DNA of 64,000 nt from Octopus sinensis (GCF_006345805.1 NW_021835991.1:310001-374000); one strand, 5' to 3'. Positions 1,085 to 53,110 are shown, counted from the stretch's first letter. The notes: a model not told the origin generated them from the letters alone. Made by a program: numbers and translations.

Positions 1085-2026
1085 CAGTGGAACTTGTCTA
1101 AACCGAACTCCGACGGGACCATGAAAATAGACCGGTTTATAGAGAGATCCGGTTTATCAAGGTTTTGAAATTTATGAACATAATCTTACCAAAAGGACTT
1201 AAAGTAAGATTCTATTTATTAAGAAAATCTGTCAAAAAAGATTGTTTAAGGTTTGATTTTTTTCACAATGGCCGTGTTGTTCAGAATCATTAATTCTTTT
1301 ATTGACGGAAGGAGAGAAGGATCCTCCGTACAAGCGAAGTGCTGTATATCTTCGAGAATTGAGCGAATGTCAATGCGAGTTAATTTGACTTCGTCTGCTT
1401 TTTGCGACTCGTCATCGTGGTTAGAATCACTCGGACTCTCCGCATCAGTTGGTTTTCTTGGAAGATGCTGCTCCAAGATGGCATTTTCCCATTCGTCGAA
1501 TCTAGCCCTCTGAAACCATTCCCAAGTGATCTTATTTAGATCATCAAACTTGCATTTATTTTCAAAACGCTTTTTCTTGCTGTTTCCATTGTCATCGTGT
1601 ATATCCAGATATTTAGTAGAGTTTTTCAGAATATCCGATACAGTGCTGGTCCCAATACCATATTTTTGGCTCAGATCTTTCTGTGTTAACTTGGGTGTGG
1701 ATTGATAATCTTTTATGAGTTGAACTTTGTGGTTCAGGTCGAGTTCACAACGAGCACGTTTCATTGATATTAAGTCAAATATGAAACTTATTAACTTTTA
1801 AAATTTTTATTTTTTAATTTTTTAAAAATACCTCTTTGTTCGGTTTGCACAGTGTGAAAAAACCGTTGGGACTTGACATTACCGCCGGTTTTCAAAATAT
1901 AGAGGATCCGGAATAAAGAGATGAAATTTATATTGAAAAATACTGTAAAAAATTAGGACCGGAGAAAACGGCCGGTATATGGAGAGATCCGGTATATTCA
2001 GGGGTTGGTTTGGACAAGTTCCACTG
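1085..2026 (-). mobile_element. non-autonomous pogo/Tigger (Tc1-mariner superfamily) element, internally deleted
   Basis: TIR CAGTGGAACTTGTCTAAACC at 1085 and its near-complement GGTTTGGACAAGTTCCACTG ending at 2026, flanked by TA on both sides. Encloses an HTH ORF. Confidence 0.9.
1246..1764 (-). CDS. truncated pogo transposase: HTH_psq, start of CENP-B HTH, fused to acidic C-terminal tail, no DDE domain
   Basis: MKRAR..L..KVQLI..QKDLSQKYGIGTSTVSDILKN (psq-type HTH), then DDLNKITWEWFQRAR, joined in frame to the C-terminal tail. Confidence 0.8.
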   Translation of the reverse strand: MKRARCELDLNHKVQLIKDYQSTPKLTQKDLSQKYGIGTSTVSDILKNSTKYLDIHDDNGNSKKKRFENKCKFDDLNKITWEWFQRARFDEWENAILEQHLPRKPTDAESPSDSNHDDESQKADEVKLTRIDIRSILEDIQHFACTEDPSLLPSIKELMILNNTAIVKKIKP

Positions 2027-29071: not shown

Positions 29072-31657
29072 ATTATTATTATTTGCAACATACGTAGAAT
29101 CATATTAGTTATAATTTTACTCGTGCAGCATTAAAAACAATCCTTTGAACCAGCCTCCTCCAACCTCCTCTGTCGTGAGCGAGTTTTCTCAGCTCGTCCA
29201 GATCCTCACCACTCCTTAGCCTTTTCTTCACACATTTCAGGTCTCCGTCAAGTGTTTCCGGCAGCGTAACACGTGGACGTCCACGGAAGCTCGATCCCTC
29301 TTTCAGGAAGTAGCCCTCCATTGCTATGTTAGCTGGGGCAAGCATGTCCATTCGTAGAATATGGCCAAATAACCTCCACCGCATATTGACGATTTCCACA
29401 CTCAGAGGGCCAGTTCTGCATCTATTGTATAGCGATTCCTGGTTGATTCTTATAGGCCAGTTCAATCCCAGTAGGGATCTAAGTTGCCTGCGGTGAAAAG
29501 AATCGAGTCCACGTTGTTCAGTACTAGACATTCCCCAGGTCGCCGAATTATATGTCAGGATTGGTTTGACAAAGGCTTCATACATCCTCAGACGAAGTGA
29601 CGTACAGAGTCGTCGTTTGCCGATCCACTCTTTCTTTATCTTGTTCATCGTGGCCCAAGCGAGAGCCTTTCTTCTGACAATATCATGGCCGTCCCCAAGT
29701 AGAGAACCGAGTTTGTTCGTTTTGCGCCAGGCTTCACTTGAGCTGCTCTCCATCCTCATGATTTCAACGATGTCGGTTTTTCCAACGTTCATTTTAAGGA
29801 ACCATCTGTTCAGCTCAGCAGGTGCCACTTCAAGGAGTCGAAGTAAGGCCGATTTGTCGTCTGACACGAAGTCGACGTCATCTGCATATACAATTTCGAC
29901 GATATTGCCAGCATAGAATTTTCGAAGGTCTCGTAGTGCCGTCTCCAGATAGATCACGAATAGCAACGGCGAGAGGGCGTCTCCCTGAGGGGTACCGACG
30001 TTGCACGTGAATTCACGGGAAAACGCCGTGCCGACCCGCACCTTGAGCTTTGTGTTCGATAGTAGTACTCTTATCATATTGACAGAGTCAGGGTCCAGGA
30101 ATTGTTCCAGTATTTTGAGGAGTAGACCACGGCGTACCGTGTCAAAGGCCCTAGACAGGTCTATTCCCAGGACTGTTGTTGCACTTTTGTATCTCTGGGT
30201 GATAGCGCAGTACCACTTGTGGGCCCAGACAGCATCGGCGGTGGATCTTCCTGTCCTAAATCCACTATGACTCGGGGATAGATAGTTGTCCACTTGTTCT
30301 CTTATTCGGTTCAGTGTAACTAATCCCAAAAGTTTCCGTAAGGTGTTTAGCAAGATTATAGGGCGTAGATTTTCGACAGGCCCAGCCTGCTTGTTAGGCT
30401 TTTGGATCGGTATTAATAATCCGGAATCAAGACCGAGGAATTCCTTTTTCATAAACATACCATTGAGTAGCTCCGCCAGTTTGTCTGTTAGTGCAGGCGG
30501 TCCGTATTTAAACAGTTCTGAATTTATTCCATCCGGTCCAGAGGAGCGGCCATTTTTAAGTTTGGCTATTGCAGTTGATACTTCACCGGTGGTGATAGGT
30601 AGGCTGAGATGAGTGGTGTATCCGCTGGTGTAATCGGATATTTCTCCGTGAGCGGTTAATATACTCTCGAAATACGAGGCTATATATTCAGCCTGCTCTT
30701 TGGGATTTGTGATGAATCTTCCATTGCTGTCATGGATTTTGAGTTTGTTAGTTTGTTTTTTCCTGTTGAGTAGGCGGATTGCCGTAAACATTTTTGAAGA
30801 GTCCTTTAGCTGTTCAATTCCTGCAGCTATTAAGTCGAGTTTGTTAGTGAAGTTTGTCTTGTTCAACATTTTGATTTTTTTCTGGGTAGATGAACGTCTA
30901 TTCTGTAAGATTTGTTTCTTCTTCGGATCAGATGTGTTTTCCAGTTGTAGTCTTAGCTCCTTTTGTTCTTTGATGAGGGCAGGGAGATCAGAGTGTATAC
31001 CTTTGTTGCATAGTACTTGCGACCGAAGGCCAATTGCCTCGTCGGCTGCCAAGAGGATCCCTTTCATTGTCTCCGCCCAGGCACCTCCTGGAGAAAGTTC
31101 GGCATTTATGTTTCCAAGAGATTTCATGATTGACAGTTGGTAGTTGTCTCTGACCAGCGTAGATGAGCACAGTTGTTCGATTTTATGCCTTATCCTTACA
31201 TCAGCGTTGGGCCCCCTTCGTCGTAGGTCAATTGATGTCTTCATAGCAAACTTGGCAGAGACAATTTTATGATCACTGTAAGTAGCTGCACCTCCATAAG
31301 ACCTTGAGTCTCGGAGAAGCGATTTTTCCCCGGCTCGACAGACGATGTAGTCAATTTGGTTGAAAATGTTGACGGACCCTGCGGTCGGTGAGGGTCGTTG
31401 GCCAGTCCACGTCGTTTTGTGACGCGCGGGATGCTGGAAACCGGTGTTGCATAGGAATAGGTCAAAGACCCGACAGAATTCAGCTAGAACAGTTCCTGGA
31501 TAGTTTCTGATTCCTCTTCCGTGATGGCCAATAAAACTTTCGTTTCCCTTACGGGTTCCAACTTTCGCATTCCAGTCCCCGGCAACAAACAGAAAGTACG
31601 AAGAGCCGAGGTCTGTTAATGTCCTTCCTAATTCCTCATAGAAGATATCAAGTTCTT
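29072..31657 (-). mobile_element. RTE-clade LINE, 5'-truncated, young, with 12-bp TSD and (AAT)n tail
   Basis: CAAATAATAATT at 29060-29071 and 31658-31669. AAT repeats at the 3' end. Open frame from ~31657 to 29109. Confidence 0.9.
29109..31657 (-). CDS. APE endonuclease (C-terminal part) plus reverse transcriptase, uninterrupted but lacking its N-terminus
   Basis: In frame upstream of the listed ORF: GDWNAKVG, NQIDYI, SDHKIV (APE). RT motifs GPDGI, LRPI, DLSRAFD, GTPQGDALSP, YADD. RTE-type tail RWRLFGHILRM..RGRP. Confidence 0.9.
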
Positions 31658-31923
31658 CAAATAATAATTGTCTATAAATTATTAATTTTAAGGATACACA
31701 AAATATTATAAACCTACATATAACAATAAAAAAACCATTTTCAGGAAGTCAACTATATTTAAATCGTCTTTCAATAAAAAAACATTTCCCTCGACAATTT
31801 ACACCTTTGCTAGACTACGCTCAACAAACGTGTGTTAAAGGGAGTATTACCAGGGCATTATCCAGCCTGTGACATTTTGTTTTTAATTTTATTATATAAC
31901 AAATTAGGTCAAGAGAAAAATCG

Positions 31924-36859: not shown

Positions 36860-39800
36860 TGATCTATCTTTTATTAACCAAAACGAAGCTAGATTAGTTT
36901 TATATTATAAATCGTCACGCTCCGGCAGCCAGTATCGCGTGCGTGTTGCCACGAAGAACTGCAATTCCGATACGTTGGCGAAGCCAATACCCCTCGCGAC
37001 TGTCCCTCCTTCGTTTAGCCAGCATCGCCCCAATTTCCTTGAGAAATTCCGCGGTTTTGGATCCCACTACACCAGACGTCTCTATCGAGATTGGGACAAA
37101 ACGGAAAAGTTTTCCGATCTCCAAATACTTAGATATCTTCGCCTTTTCTGCTGCGTTAGCAGCCCAACCGGGCGAATGAATATTCCGAAGAATCATGGAC
37201 TGGGAGAACGTGTCTACGCACGTCGCATCCCATGCGAGTGATTTTCCCTGGGAGTACGGGAAAAGAGTTATCCCATCGGGCCTTCTGCCATCTCCCCGGT
37301 CAAGCCCGATGGGTTCCAGGTGTGCTGGAAATCCTGCGCTCTCGAGGGCCCGTCGTATTATGTCGTTGAGTGCGGCATGGCGGGGAGCGCGACCTGCACT
37401 CCTCTTGCAAGACAAAGGGTGTAGTCCTTTGGAATCGACTATTCCTCCACACCGGCATCTGTGTTCCTGACAGACGTCAAGACCCAAGCGTTGTGCAACA
37501 CCGATTCTCACACAATCGTCGTCCATAAGCGTACCGAATGAACTGCATGGAAATGCGTGGAGCCATGCACCACTCCCGTGCTGTGCCCCGGATAGCAAAC
37601 AGACGAGCCGGTGTTGGTTCAACTCCCGCTTCAGGTCATCAACGACAGCCTTGCATGATATTGCGTCCCAACAATTCTGCCTCGAGACATCATCTGGGAT
37701 TGAAAGTCCGGCTTCCTTCCATTGCAAGCAAGCCTTGTCAAATACTGTGTCCAAGGAGAGTCCAGTTGTGTAACGTAGGATTTCCTGGACGAGATGACTG
37801 CAGCTTGAAAGCGATGACAGATATGCCGGGAATGCGAAATCCAGCGCCGACCTGAGACCCGTTCCTCCGATGCGTGTAGGAAGCTTGCATTGATTCCAGC
37901 CAGGTTCGTCAAAGTGGATGTTCAAGAGCGATTCAGCTGAACTTCTCAAAGTCCTATCCAGTGTCTGTAGAATGTCTCGATGTTCCAAGCAGGGAGAACA
38001 ACGGAGAGCGTATTGGAGTTTAGGCAAGCCAATGCTATTTTTCAAAAGGAAGAATGCAGTATGAGCATTGAGTAAGGAGAGTTTCTCCGTAACTCTAGAA
38101 AGACCCTTGTTTTTTTCCAGCAGATGGCACCGCAGTTCCTTTTCGCCAAGTGGGCATCCAAGAAAGTATGCCCTCTCCCGAGGTAAGACAGTAATCCCAG
38201 GTAATATCGATTCGAAAGACTTGACCACGTTGATAAAATCACTTTCCGAGTATGTGATATTTATCAGCTCCGATTTCTTTATATTTATATCAAGCCCGAG
38301 TTTTCGTAGTACAGGCACGGCTTGTGACAGAACGTCAAAAACTTTTCCCCACGGCCCTCCAATCGTGGCATCATCAAGATACCAGAGGTTCAGTTCCGCG
38401 TTGATGGAACGTACAGTTTCGTCGATTGCCAACGCAAAGAGAAGTGGACCAAGCGGGTCCCCTTGCTGGACTCCAGTCTCCGAATAGATAATCTTGTCCG
38501 CAAAGACGAGTGAAGACTTGGTTCCGTAGGCCAGGTAGACGAGTGGAATGAGTTCCGGGGCTCGTTTGCTTACTGTTTCGAAAATTTGATCCCTCCGCAG
38601 TGAATTAAAGGCATTGCAGATGTCAAGCTTGACTCCCATTTTTGGATTTTGTTCGTTTTTCTGTGTGAAAAAGCACCTTGCGGCATGCACCGCCGCCTCA
38701 CATCCGTTCTTTACCCCAACTCCGAGTTGGAAGGGGGAGAATTCTTCAGATATTCTCGGACAGACAAGACTGCATGCAATTTTAGCTGTTAGCCTTCTGA
38801 AGTAGTTCCCGACCGCGATAGGGCGGGCCCCACCTTCGGGTTTTTTGAAGCCAAGTAGATGTGCGCTGAAAAGAAGCTCCCTTGCGAGAGGAGGGATATC
38901 CCCGTTCAAAATACGCATAACCAGTCTTGTGATTGATTTGACAAGGTTGCGGCCCGCCTCCGCAGTAGCCCCAGCCGTGAGATCCTTGATGTGGCCTGGT
39001 CGCAAGCCATCGAGACCTCCACTGCTGCTCGCCGCGAACGACGAAATGCTGCGCCGCACTTCGCCTTCAGTAACAGTTGTCCTTGGCATATCTCCCGGGA
39101 GCACGAATGGGCGGTAATCTTCCGGCGGACATGGATGTTTTCGTCTGATCTGTTCGAGGACTTCAGGTGTTGCAGCCAGGACGGTATCGTCGCTGGAAAC
39201 GACCCGCAACGCCGCCCGGACATCGCCTTCAAGAAGTTTACGATTTACTTTCTCTCCGAGTGTATCTGGGCAATTCCGAAAGAGCGTATGATCGGCGTCC
39301 GGATGTTTTGCTTTTGAAAATTCCGTTTTGTTAATAGATCGTGATTGGAAATCGTGGATATTTTTCTTCATTTTTGAGGAAAGTGAGTTTCCATGCATGG
39401 AACTTTCTCTAGTGTTCCGATGTGGCTCCTTTGACTCAGTGTAAGGTATGCCAAGTGCAAGCGGGGCGAAACCGAAGAGTTTGAGCCAGGCCTCTTGGTC
39501 GTTGGACGTGAGTGCATCGTCAATAGCGGAAGCCAGGCATATAGCTGCAGGGATCCGGACGGGTCTCGGGATCTTAAGTGGAATCTTGTTGGCCTTCCTT
39601 TGCTCAGACAAGAAAAGCAGGAGAGAATCCGTATTGTCGAAATCCAACGGCTCGCTAGAGACGACAGGTTCATTCGATATTTTCGCCTGGGTCTTCCGGC
39701 CAAAGCCCATACATACATTGCAGTTCCATAAACTGAGTGAGGATGCAGCCTGCCGGGACATCCTTACACATCCGAGGTGGAAAAAGTTCCCGCAAATCGA

Positions 39801-40019
39801 GCAGAAGAGCCCGTACTTGCGTGCATTGCCACAACCGCACGAAGAACACACCATACCAACTCTCACAGGGATAATGTGCGTAGTGTTGTGTTCTTGCATC
39901 TTGGAGACTGTTTCTACGCCCTCTATTTGTTCGATGGCTCTTTTTTCTTTCTTCTTTTTCCAGTTCATTTCGGGATAAATTTTGCCCCACAAGAACCCCA
40001 CGCCGTAGTTTATTCTATC
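36860..40019 (-). mobile_element. CRE-clade (RLE-type) non-LTR retrotransposon with intact ORF
   Basis: Single long ORF in markedly GC-richer DNA, short 3' UTR with AATAAA, absent at the corresponding position of copy B. No TSD identified. Confidence 0.88.
36915..39968 (-). CDS. PHD finger - reverse transcriptase - zinc knuckle - restriction-like endonuclease polyprotein (~1017 aa from first ATG)
   Basis: C4HC3 PHD (CSSC..CSIC..HLGC..WNCNVC). RT motifs GGLDGLRP, RPIAVG, QLGVG..GCE, LDICNAFN, GVQQGDPLGPLLF, WYLDD. CRCG..H..SC knuckle. RH..N, RPDG..D, ETSG endonuclease motifs. Confidence 0.93.
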   Translation of the reverse strand: MNWKKKKEKRAIEQIEGVETVSKMQEHNTTHIIPVRVGMVCSSCGCGNARKYGLFCSICGNFFHLGCVRMSRQAASSLSLWNCNVCMGFGRKTQAKISNEPVVSSEPLDFDNTDSLLLFLSEQRKANKIPLKIPRPVRIPAAICLASAIDDALTSNDQEAWLKLFGFAPLALGIPYTESKEPHRNTRESSMHGNSLSSKMKKNIHDFQSRSINKTEFSKAKHPDADHTLFRNCPDTLGEKVNRKLLEGDVRAALRVVSSDDTVLAATPEVLEQIRRKHPCPPEDYRPFVLPGDMPRTTVTEGEVRRSISSFAASSSGGLDGLRPGHIKDLTAGATAEAGRNLVKSITRLVMRILNGDIPPLARELLFSAHLLGFKKPEGGARPIAVGNYFRRLTAKIACSLVCPRISEEFSPFQLGVGVKNGCEAAVHAARCFFTQKNEQNPKMGVKLDICNAFNSLRRDQIFETVSKRAPELIPLVYLAYGTKSSLVFADKIIYSETGVQQGDPLGPLLFALAIDETVRSINAELNLWYLDDATIGGPWGKVFDVLSQAVPVLRKLGLDINIKKSELINITYSESDFINVVKSFESILPGITVLPRERAYFLGCPLGEKELRCHLLEKNKGLSRVTEKLSLLNAHTAFFLLKNSIGLPKLQYALRCSPCLEHRDILQTLDRTLRSSAESLLNIHFDEPGWNQCKLPTRIGGTGLRSALDFAFPAYLSSLSSCSHLVQEILRYTTGLSLDTVFDKACLQWKEAGLSIPDDVSRQNCWDAISCKAVVDDLKRELNQHRLVCLLSGAQHGSGAWLHAFPCSSFGTLMDDDCVRIGVAQRLGLDVCQEHRCRCGGIVDSKGLHPLSCKRSAGRAPRHAALNDIIRRALESAGFPAHLEPIGLDRGDGRRPDGITLFPYSQGKSLAWDATCVDTFSQSMILRNIHSPGWAANAAEKAKISKYLEIGKLFRFVPISIETSGVVGSKTAEFLKEIGAMLAKRRRDSREGYWLRQRIGIAVLRGNTHAILAAGA

Positions 40020-41747
40020 AACCGGAAAAAATTCATTTTAAGAAATGGTTTAGCGTCATTTTAGAAAAAAATTATGGTTTCTCTCAAAAGATGTTAGCTC
40101 ATATAGTCTTAATTCTTAGGCTACGTGAAAAACGACAGTGAATACCAAAATCTGAGAAGTGTACTACTTCAACAACCAGTGATGACTACATCCAAGTCAG
40201 AAAAATACAAACTTATGAAAAAAGCGACTCAATTTATCATTATTAATGATCGGTATATTTGCGACTCCTAACTCATAGTCTTTATCTAAAGGACGAGAAT
40301 AACCAAAAACACAAATTGGTCATTTGTCTGGACAATGAAATGGAGATGAGGACACTAGCATTCGCCATTCACCAAGAATCCCACTGGGGAATACGAAAGC
40401 TTCAGAAAAAGTGCAGTGAATTCTATTTCACTGTAAAACGTCCAATCATCGAACAAATTATAAAAGACTGCGAAATTTGTAAATTTGCCCTACCATTGAA
40501 AGTATTTTAAAAAAATATACCTAGGTGTCGGATTCTAATTACCATGTAACTGCAGGAAAACCCAATGAAAGATTCCAGGCGGATCTTATTGATGTAAGAA
40601 GATATAAAGAGTTTAATGATGGATGTAATTGGATACTTACAATTATTGACATCCACAGCAAATTTGTTGTCTGCAAATCTTTAAAAAATAAAACTGCTTC
40701 TGGTAAGACTTAAAATTTATTTGAAGAAGTGGTGAATAAATTCCAAAATTTGTTTTATCAAATTGGATATTGTCAGATCTTGCAAACGGACAACGGGTTG
40801 GAATTCAAAAACCAACTTATGGCTCAACTATGCGAGTAAAACAAAATTAAGCATATTTATGGAAGGCCAAACCATCCTCAGTCACAAGTTTGTTAGTTTA
40901 TATAACTTAGGGTGTGATTGAGAGGTTTAACCAAACCTTAACTCGTGCTCTGGCCAAAATGATGGAAATAGAGGGAACTAAAAATTGGAAACAATTTTTA
41001 GACAAAGTAACTTTTTCTTATAATACGACACACCACTCGGCGATCAATGAGACCCCCTTCAAAAAGTTTAGGGGTATTTCTGGAATTAACACTGTGATTC
41101 ATGAAATACCAGGTTATAATCTTATTTATAATTTAGATGAAAATAATGAGGCATCGTTTGTCGAAGATGAACTTAGTGGTAAATTTACGATGTATTTATT
41201 TTAGAAACGAATAACAAAATTTTTAATTTCACTCCTCCAGACATGAATTCATCTTATTTTAAAAGAATGAATACAAAGATGGGAGTACACAGGTCAAAAT
41301 ATGATTTTGAAATAGGGAATGAGGTATAAATAAATAATAACAGTTTAGGTTCGAATCTTGAAAGATTGTGGGACAAATCCGTCATTGAAGCTACACAGAT
41401 TTGAATCCCCATATGAAGAAAAGGGAACAGTGAAAGAAGTAATGTCAAATAACAGACTACTAGTGAGTTACCATTCCTAACATTAAGATCGAATTCCAAA
41501 ATGAAGCTAGGATAGTTACTATGAACAGAGTTAAAAAGTGTTAATTTTTTTAAGTGTTAACATGTCGTTAGTTTTTTTAATTAATACAAAAATACATCGA
41601 TTAAAATATATCACCTGTCAAACTGATGGTCGCAATTAATGTCAAAAATACATCACTGAAGGTCATAACCTGTCAAATTGAAGGTCGGATGGTCGCCAGC
41701 GTGGGATGGTCGCCAGCGTGGGATGGTCGCCAGCGTGGGTCGCGACA
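40020..41747 (+). mobile_element. Ginger2/TDD DNA transposon, family 1 (5' TIR lost at the CRE junction)
   Basis: Right end ..(ATGGTCGCCAGCGTGGG)x3 TCGCGACA followed by TATTA. Encodes a retroviral-like integrase with no RT or LTR. Confidence 0.88.
40074..41544 (+). CDS. Ginger2/TDD (KRBA2-like) integrase-transposase, 10 exons, one in-frame TAA (~40836)
   Basis: HHCC (IHQESHWG..CEIC), FQADLID, IDIHSKF, LQTDNGLEF, GRPNHPQSQGVIERFNQTL, YNTTHHSAINETPF, C-terminal FEIGNEVRIL..SPY. Nine GT-AG introns of about 23-27 nt. Confidence 0.85.
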
Positions 41748-41884: not shown

Positions 41885-43299
41885 TACTAAATATCTTTGT
41901 AATAATTAGAAGTTTCACCAATGGGTTTCCTTATAAATTTAAATTTTTTTGGATCCGGATAGGAACATTCTGACTCGGAATTATCTACGTATATATTTTA
42001 AATTGGATTACGCAAATTTTCTACGCTCTCTGGAGTTGAACAATCAAATGAATCTTCCATTTGCTCTGAAATAACACAATCATTTGAATCATCTAAAACA
42101 TAATTATATATAACCACCAATTATTGGATTTATTCCCTTAATTCCCCTATATTTTTCAAAGGGGCTCTCATTAGAAAATGAATGTACAGAGATGTTATAA
42201 CTGTACACACATTTTTCTAATTTCACTATCCACTTTTTCTCGCTGTTAAAGTTTGGTTGAATCTCTCTACAACCCCCTGTGTCCGTGGATTGTTAGGTCT
42301 TCCGTGAATTTGTTTGATTTTAAAATCAAAACAAATTTTCTTTATTTCCTGATTCTTAAACTCAGACCCATTATCTGACTGAAGAATTTGACATGGGGCG
42401 TTTAAATAAAATAATGACTTTAAATTTTCCGATACTTCTTTGTCCGACTTATTATAAAGAGGCCTGGCGAAGGCAAATCTATAAAGATTGTTTTAACTAA
42501 CAAACCTCCTATAGACATCAATGACCGTTAAAATCCATTTAAAATCATGATTAACAGTTGAAAATCTTTTTAAGTCTTTAAGATCTATCTGAAACCGTTC
42601 ATTAGGACAAGAAGCAAAAACATGGTGATTTATATCTCCAATCTACAATATAAAATGCCTATACTTTTAAAGGACGTGAAAATTTACAGACTTGACAATT
42701 TCGAATTACTTTTCTGATTATGTCATTCTTTACAGTAAAATAGCTTTGTCGACACTGATATTCAATTTTATTCACTCCTCCGTGAGAATACTCGTGCAAT
42801 GTTTTTGCAACAAGCTCCATTTCAGATTCATTATCGAGAGTAATTACTAACTTGGGATCAGCGGATTTAAGATACAATCTGAAACTTATTGCGCATTCAA
42901 AATACCTTTCATTTATGATAGTAAAATTCTTTATTTTATTGGCAAGCCTATATTTTGTGTGCCTCGAAAAATTTTCGGGAAATTTACCAGCCAACGCATC
43001 CTTTAAAATCTCATATTCGATAATGTCTTTTACAAAACCCTTGTAAGAACTCATCACAATAGAGAAAACAAGAAAAAACACGCTAGAAATGTAAGTTTGC
43101 CAAGTTAAAAAATTAAAATCTTAATAATTGTAACATTAATAAATTAAAGATTATTTAACATGTTTGAAATCGATTCATTTAATATATTTTTTTTCACTAT
43201 AAAAATTAAATTTCGGCTAATCAAAGAATTCTAATTTGACAGTTTCAATGTCAAAAAATGTAACGCGCTGCCCATGCGTAACGCGCTGCCCATGTCACA
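41885..43299 (-). mobile_element. Ginger2/TDD family 2, defective and 3'-truncated
   Basis: End TGTGACATGGGCAGCGCGTTACGCATGGGCAGCGCGTTAC (at 43299, minus strand). Product LHEYSHGG..CQVC, FQIDLKD, LQSDNGSEF, GRPNNPRTQGVVERFNQTL, with micro-introns. Confidence 0.85.
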
Positions 43300-48283: not shown

Positions 48284-50454
48284 CAGGGGTCACCAAACTT
48301 TTTGCACTCGCGGGCCGGATTGACCCCAACACAATGAACGCGGGCCGGAGCACGTGCATAGGATTATAATTTTACTAGAAATTCATAAGTGTGTTTTTTA
48401 CAATAAAAACTAATTTAAACAAAAATAAAGTAAACAAAAATTTTAATGAGAGCTATGGAACTGTGATCTTTTTTTGATAAGTTCATTAATATTTGGTTTT
48501 AAATTACTGCATCCTATCATGAGAATTGATTTTAAGTGTCCGTCAGTCAATCTTGCACGATGGGCAGACTTAACATATTTCATCCTCGAAAACGTTTGCT
48601 CACATTGGTAAGTTGTGCCAAATATAGAAATCATCTTTATCGCAAAATTCTTTAGTCTCGGAAACTCATCATTCTTGAGATATTCGTAGAACTCAGCGAG
48701 TTTTGTCCGTCTGTGACAATCTTTGAGCTGTTCATTTGATTGTAAGTCAATAACTTCTAATTGTAATTCATGTTGAACATTTTCAACATTACAAGAAAAT
48801 GGATTTTCGAACAAAATTATATCGCTTTCAATTTTGTCAAGTTCAGAAAACTTATGTAAAAAATGATGTTTTAATTCTTTGATAATTCCAATTTGGAAAG
48901 TAATGTCGATCTCATTACAGTTTGCCTCACAAAAACTTTTAAAACAAGAAAAGTGTGAAAACTGACGTACTCCAAGTTGTGACTCGAATAACATCAATTT
49001 TTGTCGAAATGCTTTAATTATCCTGTAGAAATCACAAATTAAGTTTTCCTTTCCTTGTAATTTCAGATTTAGCTCATTCATGTGAGTTGTAACATCAACC
49101 AAAAATGATAATTTTGATAACCAAGCAAGATCTGATAATTCGGGATAATAGTTATTTTTACTGGTTAGAAAAATATCAATCTCACTTCGGAGTTTATAAA
49201 ATCTATTTAATACATTACCACAGCTAAGCCATCTAACTGCAGTGTAATATGGTAAGTCAAAATATTCAGATCCAAAATCGTCAAGTAAAACTTTAAACTG
49301 ACGGTGATTAAGTGAGCTCCCTCGAACAAAGTTTATTATGCGAATAACTGGATTCAACACACATGAAATATTAAGAGCCTTCGCACATAGTGCGTGCTGA
49401 TGAAGGATGCAATGAATGAACAAAGTGTTTGAAATATGTAATTCCTCCAATTTATTAGTTATTTGCCCAACTAGACCCTTTTTAGAACCAGCCATATTCT
49501 TTGCCCCGTCAATCGTAACACAACTCAGTTTCTCCCATTCAAGGTTATAGTCACTTATAGTTTGTTCCAATTCATCAAAAATATCTTTTCCAGTGGTTGT
49601 TCCATGAATAGAACAAACAGATGCCAGTTCTTCAGTTATGGAAATATTCTCATCAACTCCACAATAAAAATAAGAAGTTGCGATGTTCCTGAAATGTCAA
49701 CTGACTCATCCAATGCAAGAGAATACCACAACATATTACTTGTCTTTTCACAAATTTGTAAATATATATTTTTCCAAGCTCTTCAGTTCTCCGTGATACA
49801 GAACTCGCCGACAAACTTATTCCATCAAATAAGGAAGAATTTAGTGGGCACAAACAATTAACTGCTTCAATAATGCAATTTTTGATATACATCCCATCAC
49901 TAAAGGGTTTCCCGTGTTGTGAAATAATTTTCGTTATCTCGTATCCAGCTCTTGTTACATTTTCATTATTTTCAAATTTTTTTTTTATAAGGCCTTGTTG
50001 AATTTGTAAAGTGCGTTTCAGTGATTCAACTTTATCCTCACGTAGCTTTCCAGTGTACTTGGAATATATCGGAGCATGATTCGTTTCATAATGACGTCGA
50101 ATGTTATACTCCTTCATAACAGAAAGATGTTCGTGGCATATTAAACAATAAGCTTTCTGCTTTAATTCATCTTTCGCAAAAAAATACTTCAATTCCCATA
50201 ATTTATTGAATACACGGCATTCGCGGTCAACCTTTCTTTTCATATTAGACATAGCAACAAAGAAAAATTTAAAGTTAATGCTGATAAGTTTTTTTTCGAA
50301 TTAAATCTTGCAAAATAGTTTAATTTTTTAATTAAAGTTTTTATTTAAGTTAATTATTAAGGTATTAATTGAATATCTCGAAATAGTGCGCGGGCCGGAT
50401 AAAATGTTGTCGCGGGCCGGATCCGGCCCGCGGGCCGTAGTTTGGTGACGTCTG
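48284..50454 (-). mobile_element. hAT transposon, GTF2IRD2/SPIN-like (Buster group), near full length
   Basis: TIRs CAGGGGTCACCAAAC and GTTTGGTGACGTCTG, subterminal CGCGGGCCGG repeats, flanks ATCTAGAT and GTCTAAAT. Confidence 0.92.
48443..50252 (-). CDS. hAT transposase (BED finger, DDE core, dimerization domain), frameshift near 49770
   Basis: KRKVDRECRVFN..CLIC..KEYNIRRHYETNH, ALDESVD in the shifted frame, TIDGAKNM, HCILHQHALC, VRWLS, FGTTYQCEQTFSRMK. Confidence 0.9.
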
Positions 50455-51827: not shown

Positions 51828-53110
51828 GAAAGTACAATAATAGAAGATCTATTATTCTGCAAACCATTTCCTGGAAGGAGCACGGCCAATGAAATTTTTA
51901 ATATAATTGATACTTTTTTGAAGAAAATAACATAGAATGGAGCACAGTCAATGTCAGGAAATAAATCTGGTCTTCAAGCTCTTGTAAAAAACAGAGCACC
52001 AGAAATTATCTGGACGCACTGCATGCTGCACAGATCAGCACTTGTCTCAAAGAATATGAGTCCAGAACTGAACGATATTTTTGCGCAAATTACAAAAGTT
52101 ATAAACTACATAAAACACAGTCCTTTAAGAGCTAAGCTTTTTGCAAAGCTGTGTGAAGATATGGATTCAAAATATACATCGCTTTTATACTATTGTGAGG
52201 TACGCTGGCTATCTCGTGCAAAAGTGATTAGAAGGGTGTTTGAACTCAAAGATCAAGTTGCAGATTTTCTTGATGAAAATGATATTGAAGATGCAAAGTT
52301 GTTCAGGGATGATGACTTTATTGTCAAATTTGCCTATTTAGTTGACATTTTTGGGAAATTGAGTATATTGAATAAATCAATGCAGGGACCACAACTACAT
52401 TTATTCTCTCAAAAGGACAAAATAAAAGCATTTATGAAAAAATTGGTATTATGGAAATCAAATATACAAAAAATATCTATGACATGTTTCCACTTTTAAA
52501 CACCTTTTGCGCCATAGTGAACATTGAAGCAAACAAAGACATATTTGCTGAACATTTGGATTGTTTGTTGAAGCATTTTGCTCACTATTTTAAAGATCTC
52601 GACTGTAAAATGTTCGAATGGATACAGAATCCATTTATTGATGAAGAAGATAATCAATTTGCATTGACAACTTTTGAAAAAGAAAAATTGATAGAATTGT
52701 CATGCGATACATTATTGAAACAAAAATTTGAGAGAGAACCGCTAATTTCTTTTTGGTTGAATGTAAGAACGGAATATGAAATTTTGTCGAATAAAGCAAT
52801 GAAAGTTTTGTTGCCATTTGCTACTTCATATTTATGCGAAACTGGATTTTCTGCACTAGCTGCAAATAAATCTAAATATCGAACTCGTTTAGTAGTGACT
52901 AATGAGCTAAGAGTAGCACTCTCTGCGATGACACCAAGATTTGAAAAACTTTGCGCCAAGATGGAAAAAAAATTATCTCATTAACTTTTTGTTTTAAAAA
53001 ATTGTTTTTGATAAAATAATAATTGTATTATATTATGGAATATAAAGGGAGGCGCAAGATTGTACTTTTTCTCTAAGGGAGGCGCGTAAAAAAAAGCTTG
53101 GAAACCTCTG
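51828..53110 (+). mobile_element. 3' part of a hAT Buster/Charlie (ZBED5/ZBED8-like) element with right TIR
   Basis: HCMLHRSAL, EVRWLSRAKV, LLPFATSYLCETGFS..KSKYR. Ends AAAGCTTGGAAACCTCTG, followed by ATCTAGAG. Confidence 0.9.

Follow-up and report, generated by a model that had tools for sequence, protein, structure and literature searches.

What does a plant homeodomain (PHD) finger do at the N-terminus of a retrotransposon whose relatives carry DNA-binding modules in the same place? The question is raised by a 64,000-nucleotide stretch filed under Octopus sinensis (GCF_006345805.1 NW_021835991.1:310001-374000), here called the window, in which the minus strand holds a CRE-type non-LTR retrotransposon with a C4HC3 finger ahead of its reverse transcriptase (RT) and restriction-like endonuclease (RLE). 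A sequence-only reading of the window had proposed that the finger reads tails of histone H3 and chooses targets by chromatin state. The explanation favored in this study, with a probability of roughly one half, is a joint one: the element is an intact, Cre-1_BM-like member of the CRE clade, it inserts by target-primed reverse transcription (TPRT) at loosely chosen AT-rich sites, and its basic finger holds target DNA with low specificity instead of reading histone marks.

The coding frame and the domain order had been described correctly by the sequence-only reading. One uninterrupted open reading frame (ORF) of 1017 codons runs along the minus strand at 36915-39968, from an ATG at 39968 to a TGA at 36915-36917. 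The ligands of the C4HC3 finger, with its W-x-C, lie exactly where that reading had placed them, and a domain and motif scan finds an RT with WYLDD, a zinc knuckle, and a PD..D endonuclease behind the finger. The element has these features:

36870..40003, minus strand: full-length CRE-type non-LTR retrotransposon, about 3.13 kb, delimited by the 5' and 3' ends of aligned copies
39900..40003, minus strand: likely 5' untranslated region (UTR), about 100 nt; the ATG at 39968 is private to the window copy
36915..39899, minus strand: single ORF, likely 994 amino acids (aa) from ATG 39899 (1017 aa from ATG 39968)
39711..39848, minus strand: C4HC3 zinc finger of predicted PHD fold, basic; the R-K motif of the family precedes Cys3, and there is neither cage Trp nor acidic residue
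39645..39701, minus strand: predicted flexible linker from the finger to the helical N-terminal region (model confidence, pLDDT, <50 at model residues 67-85)
38244..38846, minus strand: RT core, Pfam RVT_1 (aa 375-575)
38370-38384, minus strand: WYLDD (aa 529-533), within the RT core
37407..37457, minus strand: CCHC zinc knuckle (aa 838-854)
36918..37406, minus strand: RLE, RH..E..RPDG..D (D898, D914), fitting the SLACS/CRE REL pattern of PMC12857005
36870..36914, minus strand: short 3' UTR

The limits of the element are taken from its copies. The longest young copies align to 39994-40003, and young copies together with those of an older subfamily start at about 39983-40003, which gives an element of about 3.13 kb with the finger inside it; on the other side, copies end at 36869-36903 and pass into A-rich tails. 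The ATG at 39968 was considered as the start codon and rejected because it occurs in the window copy only, five near-identical long copies having AGG there, while the ATG at 39899 is found in 13 of 14 aligned 5' ends; a protein of 994 aa is therefore likely. The AlphaFold2 model of these 994 aa (pLDDT 91.9, predicted template modeling score 0.86) has R2 TPRT complexes as its best fold matches and places the finger on a disordered linker. The endonuclease aligns weakly to the R2 nuclease region.

Placement among the CRE-type RLE elements, already made from the sequence, is supported by domain order and RT motifs. An RT followed by a CCHC knuckle and a PD-(D/E)XK nuclease in one ORF is the pattern given in PMC12857005, and the A-rich 3' tails of many copies and their variable target-site duplications are as reported for CRE elements (PMC12278014, PMC3636483). 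The RT of Cre-1_BM is colinear with that of the window and has distinctive motifs in common with it, in a by-eye comparison with a published alignment rather than a tree.

The finger itself spans residues 41-86 (39848-39711), has the spacing C-x2-C-x11-C-x2-C-x4-H-x2-C-x13-W-x-C-x2-C, and is a real PHD in its predicted fold. The Pfam PHD model PF00628 is matched over its full length (positions 1-47 of 47) by the first 123 aa, with 23.6 bits (E 5.3e-05) and thus just below the curated gathering cut-off of 24 bits, and by the whole protein with 18.1 bits; the relatives P0049, P0040, P0073, and P0118 exceed the cut-off. Matches of the finger among PDB sequences are mostly PHD fingers. Its AlphaFold2 model, built from 24 aligned sequences, reaches pLDDT 88-94 and superimposes on the solved AL1/AL3 PHD fingers with a root-mean-square deviation (rmsd) of 1.1-1.6 Å over 51-53 columns (AL1, 1.1 Å over 51). 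The best Z score, for BPTF, is 7.3 (rmsd 2.2 Å, 55 aligned), which is middling taken alone. The matches listed by Foldseek and VIA-align are PHD-finger proteins, bar one or two large complexes, and ESM Atlas offers one PHD cluster at cosine 0.75 as a lead only.

PHD fingers that read H3 can be recognized by their residues: those for trimethylated lysine 4 (K4me3) have an aromatic cage that includes an invariant Trp, and those for the unmethylated residue (K4me0) have an acidic cluster before Cys1 (PMC3241642). The window finger has neither signature, and no Asp or Glu occurs in residues 27-99 of its protein. In the alignments with AL3 and SHL the cage Trp precedes the His by two residues, a position at which the window finger has Phe; at Cys3-3, which we take to be the second cage position, it has Gly. 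The claim of a typical H3-tail reader is thus unsupported.

Charge and cage residues were surveyed in 108 element-linked fingers and in 20 ORFs of other families from this assembly, with 39 fingers lacking the element-specific segment as a mixed control (7 of the 39 resemble fragments of the PHD-CRE family). Lys or Arg occupies Cys3-5 in 100 of the 108 and in 19 of the 20. Net charge is positive in 99/108 (median +5) and 20/20, and the cage is kept in 11/108, three of them of an acidic type associated with an RFX domain, and 0/20. Asp follows Cys3 in 16/108 and 1/20. Among the control fingers the median net charge is 0 and 14/39 have the cage. With a basic residue at Cys3-5 in most members, a positive net charge, and the cage mostly lost, the surface that usually binds H3 is, by prediction from these residues, reversed in charge across the PHD-CRE family. 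Such a reversal argues against a standard reader, and H3 binding through the backbone alone would be compatible with it.

The combination of PHD, RT, and RLE, for which the sequence-only reading had called for a search, proves common in sequence space. A whole-protein search gives 654 matches, the best 120 of which were listed; among 123 long homologues, 58 have room for a finger before the conserved segment and 31 of these 58 have a full C4HC3. When the first 150 aa are compared with clusters built at 50% identity, 128 matches result, 77 of them with both finger and element-specific segment, although this query selects for the finger and most matches are short gene calls without the RT. The finger precedes the same element-specific segment as in the window protein in 108 related proteins. 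Within this assembly the first-150-aa query has 610 candidates, of which 150 were scored; many of these belong to frames 930-1075 codons long. The 20 ORFs retrieved represent 13 further intact families, 41-58% identical to the window element, and all 20 have the finger, YLDD, and nuclease (by pattern). Identity across these 13 families is 46.5% in the finger, 48.3% in the RT, 3-10% in the segments flanking the finger, and about 10% in the linker (39645..39701). Since it is present in 20/20 ORFs and nearly as conserved as the RT, the finger is, on this comparison, old and under selection. At least 14 PHD-CRE families with long open frames coexist on small contigs (L099-L118), a radiation in one small genome.

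A FastTree phylogeny of the RT-RLE columns of 86 proteins, rooted at the midpoint only and excluding 38 mostly shorter homologues, places all 29 basic-finger rows on one side of a branch with a Shimodaira-Hasegawa-like support of 100; the other 17 rows on that side are N-terminally short calls or partial fingers. On the opposite side, the same N-terminal slot is filled by RFX with an acidic PHD, by C2H2-like or CxxC-H-C fingers (both read by eye), or by two further PHD variants. The PHD of the RFX lineage is canonical, acidic, and has the Trp cage. In two basic-finger proteins (P0034, P0049) a nuclear-receptor zf-C4 DNA-binding domain has been added. The extra N-terminal modules observed across the lineage are zf-C4, RFX with acidic PHD, a second PHD, and Ulp1 (P0034, P0049; P0073, P0088, P0098, P0118; P0040; P0123); Ulp1 proteases are known in NeSL/Utopia (PMC4640811). 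A USP/UCH deubiquitinase (PF00443) is predicted from the protein after the endonuclease in 10 among the best 120 homologues, at several places in the tree (P0018, P0022, P0029, P0040, P0048, P0059, P0065; by precomputed Pfam also P0057, P0080, P0109).

Two DNA searches of this assembly, which scored 40 candidates each out of 86 and 170, gave 43 and 40 matches, many 97-100% identical. Five long near-identical copies contain the finger, and four of the five keep all eight ligands; outside the finger, the frame is broken in all five. 5' truncation affects most copies, many end in A-rich tails, and junction duplications of 10-30 bp are present in 5 of 21 copies (L027, L042, L048, L055, L060; the window copy plus 20 others). 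The window copy has no clear target-site duplication, at best a match of 6 bp displaced by 10 nt from the 5' junction, and empty-site reconstruction found no clean pre-insertion site for it: its 5' flank is a truncated multi-copy repeat of integrase type, whose continuation in five other copies mismatches the 3' flank. An all-against-all comparison of 89 flanks reveals no common target, the flanks being mostly unrelated.

Because the flanks are unrelated and the duplications variable, targeting is not site-specific, and the fixed single-site insertion of the SLACS/CZAR/CRE1-2 or MoTeR type is not seen. The flank alignment suggested by the sequence-only reading accordingly reveals no strict sequence-specific targeting. 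That reading had described scattered, non-site-specific CRE copies in the window; the lack of a common target among the 89 flanks bears out the scatter, but the remaining CRE pieces there, at 24-68% aa identity, are 3' fragments that belong to other families and are not copies of this element. Scattered insertion, moreover, needs no chromatin reading. Strict targeting to a shared repeat was considered for L027 (C8596) and L105 (C8911), members of two families with proteins 49% identical, which occupy positions about 19 nt from each other in copies of a single repeat; it was rejected because that repeat is abundant (547 candidate copies in this assembly) and other flanks differ. The 5' flank of L112, a third family, adjoins sequence of the same repeat in the opposite orientation, a possible hot spot, and L117 (C12878) is a family member within an 84-bp tandem array.

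The role proposed for the finger starts from the observed domain order, finger conservation, unrelated flanks, variable duplications, and 5' truncations, together with the predicted PHD fold. In RLE elements the nuclease nicks the target, the RT primes on the nick with the 3' end of the RNA, and staggered second-strand cleavage produces the target duplication; C2H2 and Myb modules fill the N-terminal slot in R2 and other CRE elements. The window element would insert in this way at loosely chosen AT-rich sites. Its finger, carried on about 20 flexible residues in the slot of the C2H2/Myb modules, would touch the DNA backbone, naked or nucleosomal, through the conserved R-K motif, and may stem from a reader of K4me3 type, with a cage since largely lost. 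A grip on DNA is suggested because sister lineages put RFX and C2H2-like modules in the same slot. Several points weigh against it. The basic surface could equally bind template RNA or the acidic patch of the nucleosome, and charge and absent motifs are indirect evidence. PHD fingers have further contacts with H3, through pairing of backbone strands and a pocket for Ala1 (PMC3241642), and H3K4me readers are the best fold matches of the finger. Eight basic-type fingers among the 108 keep a cage-like Met/Trp plus Trp, as do P0041 and P0078, which the finger pattern missed. An acidic residue lies within four positions before Cys1 in 57/108 element-linked fingers (2/20 other-family ORFs), and the control set is diluted by its family-like fragments. 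Finally, the proximity of L027 and L105 in a high-copy repeat hints at some site preference.

Reading of the H3 tail, with insertion directed by chromatin state, is unlikely for a finger with neither cage Trp nor acidic residue, whose counterparts in other families of this assembly have the cage in 0/20 and a net positive charge in 20/20; a basic surface should also repel the basic H3 tail. It nevertheless draws on the PHD fold with H3-bound readers as best matches, on an H3 that retains canonical residues 1-13 in the likely host, and on the cage residues in a minority of relatives and the canonical acidic Trp-cage PHD of the RFX lineage. In addition, general genome targeting has been proposed for the PHD fingers of LINE elements, none of which had been tested by then (PMC4120745). 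Chromatin could instead guide the element independently of marks if the finger docked on the acidic patch of nucleosomes or on some acidic protein of the host's chromatin or repair machinery. An exposed, conserved R-K motif on a flexibly tethered domain would suit such docking, and the USP deubiquitinase or Ulp1 protease of relatives suggests dealings with host proteins, but there is no candidate partner and the same slot holds DNA-binding modules in sister lineages, which leaves this more doubtful still.

The exchange of the finger with RFX and zf-C4 DNA-binding domains in relatives points to DNA, so that binding of the element's own RNA, in aid of ribonucleoprotein assembly and in place of an ORF1-type RNA-binding function, ranks lower again and is improbable. 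It is suggested by the presence of a basic zinc finger in a single-ORF element, by the PHD fingers in CR1/L2 ORF1 (PMC4120745), and by the N-terminal fingers of R2 lineage A, which anchor both RNA and DNA (PMC13580325). The Pfam score just below the cut-off would suit a finger picked up by chance from some host gene, or a functionless remnant, but this is largely refuted and hardly credible: the finger lies inside the element boundary in 5/5 long copies, with eight ligands in 4/5, and is found in 20/20 other-family ORFs, nearly as conserved as the RT.

The window very probably comes from a dicyemid parasite co-assembled with its host, not from the main animal, to judge by introns of 23-32 nt, a divergent H3, a short second 18S, and small contigs. 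This assembly comprises very large contigs (C1-C30, with coordinates to 155 Mb) and many small ones, and none of the scored element matches (83 DNA and 150 protein) lies on C1-C30. Canonical animal H3 is found on large contigs and a divergent H3, about 79% identical to it, on small ones, including C8744, which also bears the long element copy L021. NCBI files the divergent H3 under an octopus species; it is about 79-81% identical to other H3s and 93% to one protein, and otherwise matches only records with the same species label. Of the two 18S types, one is about 2,600 nt and mostly on large contigs (64% GC in one measured) and the other is 1,667 nt, 45% GC, on a small contig (L127). The window's contig, C12462, has two genes (NudC-like and chitinase-like; L119, L121) with eight introns of 23-32 nt, lengths read by eye from frame shifts. 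Another H3 gene has a 26-nt intron (divergent-H3/18S loci L083, L088, L127). The median length of dicyemid introns is 27 bp (PMC6543705), and the genome of D. japonicum has 36.7% GC and 49% repeats (PMC6736024). Two further studies, with runs filed under two other species labels, have contigs that cover much of the element including the finger. No RNA run is listed among those that contain the element, a result without bearing on its expression. One large run of the same sample (X9) has depth in only 3 of 30 bins, in pieces 18-35 nt long, and is not counted as evidence, since absence is not something that contigs can show. The likely dicyemid origin has consequences for interpreting the contig and its annotated proteins. 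Other transposon remains in the window are:

29109-31748, minus strand: 879-codon open frame of a LINE with APE and RT, likely RTE-like
48443-50300 (minus), 51936-52984 (plus), 1246-1797 (minus), 40250-41204 (plus), and 42659-43120 (minus): broken hAT (Spin-doc finger, dimerization domain), CENP-B/pogo-type, and integrase-bearing pieces

No description of a PHD-CRE or USP-CRE architecture was found in the literature searched, Repbase and Dfam being outside its reach, and none of a PHD-CRE in the available portions of PMC9977147, PMC13580325, PMC13708176, PMC12857005, PMC4640811, and PMC12278014; a figure legend in PMC9977147 names PHD among transposable-element domains. Given how common the architecture is, a Repbase entry is quite possible. 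A wider proposal is tentative, at well under even odds: that the charge-reversed PHD marks a large uncatalogued CRE branch whose N-terminal slot takes interchangeable targeting modules (basic PHD, acidic PHD with RFX, C2H2, nuclear-receptor finger), some members having a C-terminal USP, and that the finger contacts nucleosomes and enabled an RLE lineage of site-specific ancestry to spread genome-wide. Engineering of RLE retrotransposons for gene insertion is under way, and where they land is set by their N-terminal modules. One RT-nuclease chassis with varied targeting heads is a natural series for studying directly how elements with fixed sites come to be scattered and what the PHD fingers of retroelements do, none having been tested as of 2014 (PMC4120745). 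The window copy, intact, of about 994 aa, and from a young family, is a practical test subject.

Among known systems, the closest RT is that of Cre-1_BM (LINE_CRE-II, supplementary file 6 of PMC5678591), which shares GGLDGL-P-H-KDL, RPIAVG, QLGVG-K-GCEAAVHAAR, QQGDPLGP, and LNLWYLDD with the window element, whereas most of these motifs are missing from the Cre-1_HM, CRE1, CZAR, and R2 rows of that alignment. The trypanosomatid CRE1, CRE2, SLACS, and CZAR and the fungal MoTeR, FoTeR, and Cnl1 likewise have a single ORF with RT, CCHC, and RLE, an A-rich tail, and variable target-site duplications (PMC12278014, PMC12857005). However, their insertion sites are fixed (SL RNA genes, telomere repeats) and their modules are zinc-finger-like or C2H2, while the window element occurs dispersed and its finger is of PHD fold. 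R2 (R2Bm, R2Tg; PDB 8gh6, 9nl3, 9dou) gives the best solved-structure matches by sequence profile and fold and has the same TPRT domain order, but identity is only 14-18%, and R2, unlike the window element, has one to three N-terminal zinc fingers and targets 28S ribosomal DNA. The H3K4 reader PHD fingers (AL1/AL3, PHF2, BPTF, DPF2) have their fold and zinc ligands in common with the window finger, which differs in having no cage Trp or acidic cluster and a net charge of +5. PHD fingers as accessory domains are known from CR1/L2 ORF1, where, as the sequence-only reading noted, they are better known (PMC4120745), from some L2/CR1 subgroups with a single ORF and an N-terminal PHD like that of the window element, and from the Penelope-like Chlamys elements (PMC4120745, PMC8557442). 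These CR1/L2 and Chlamys elements use APE or GIY-YIG nucleases, whereas the window element joins its PHD to an RLE.

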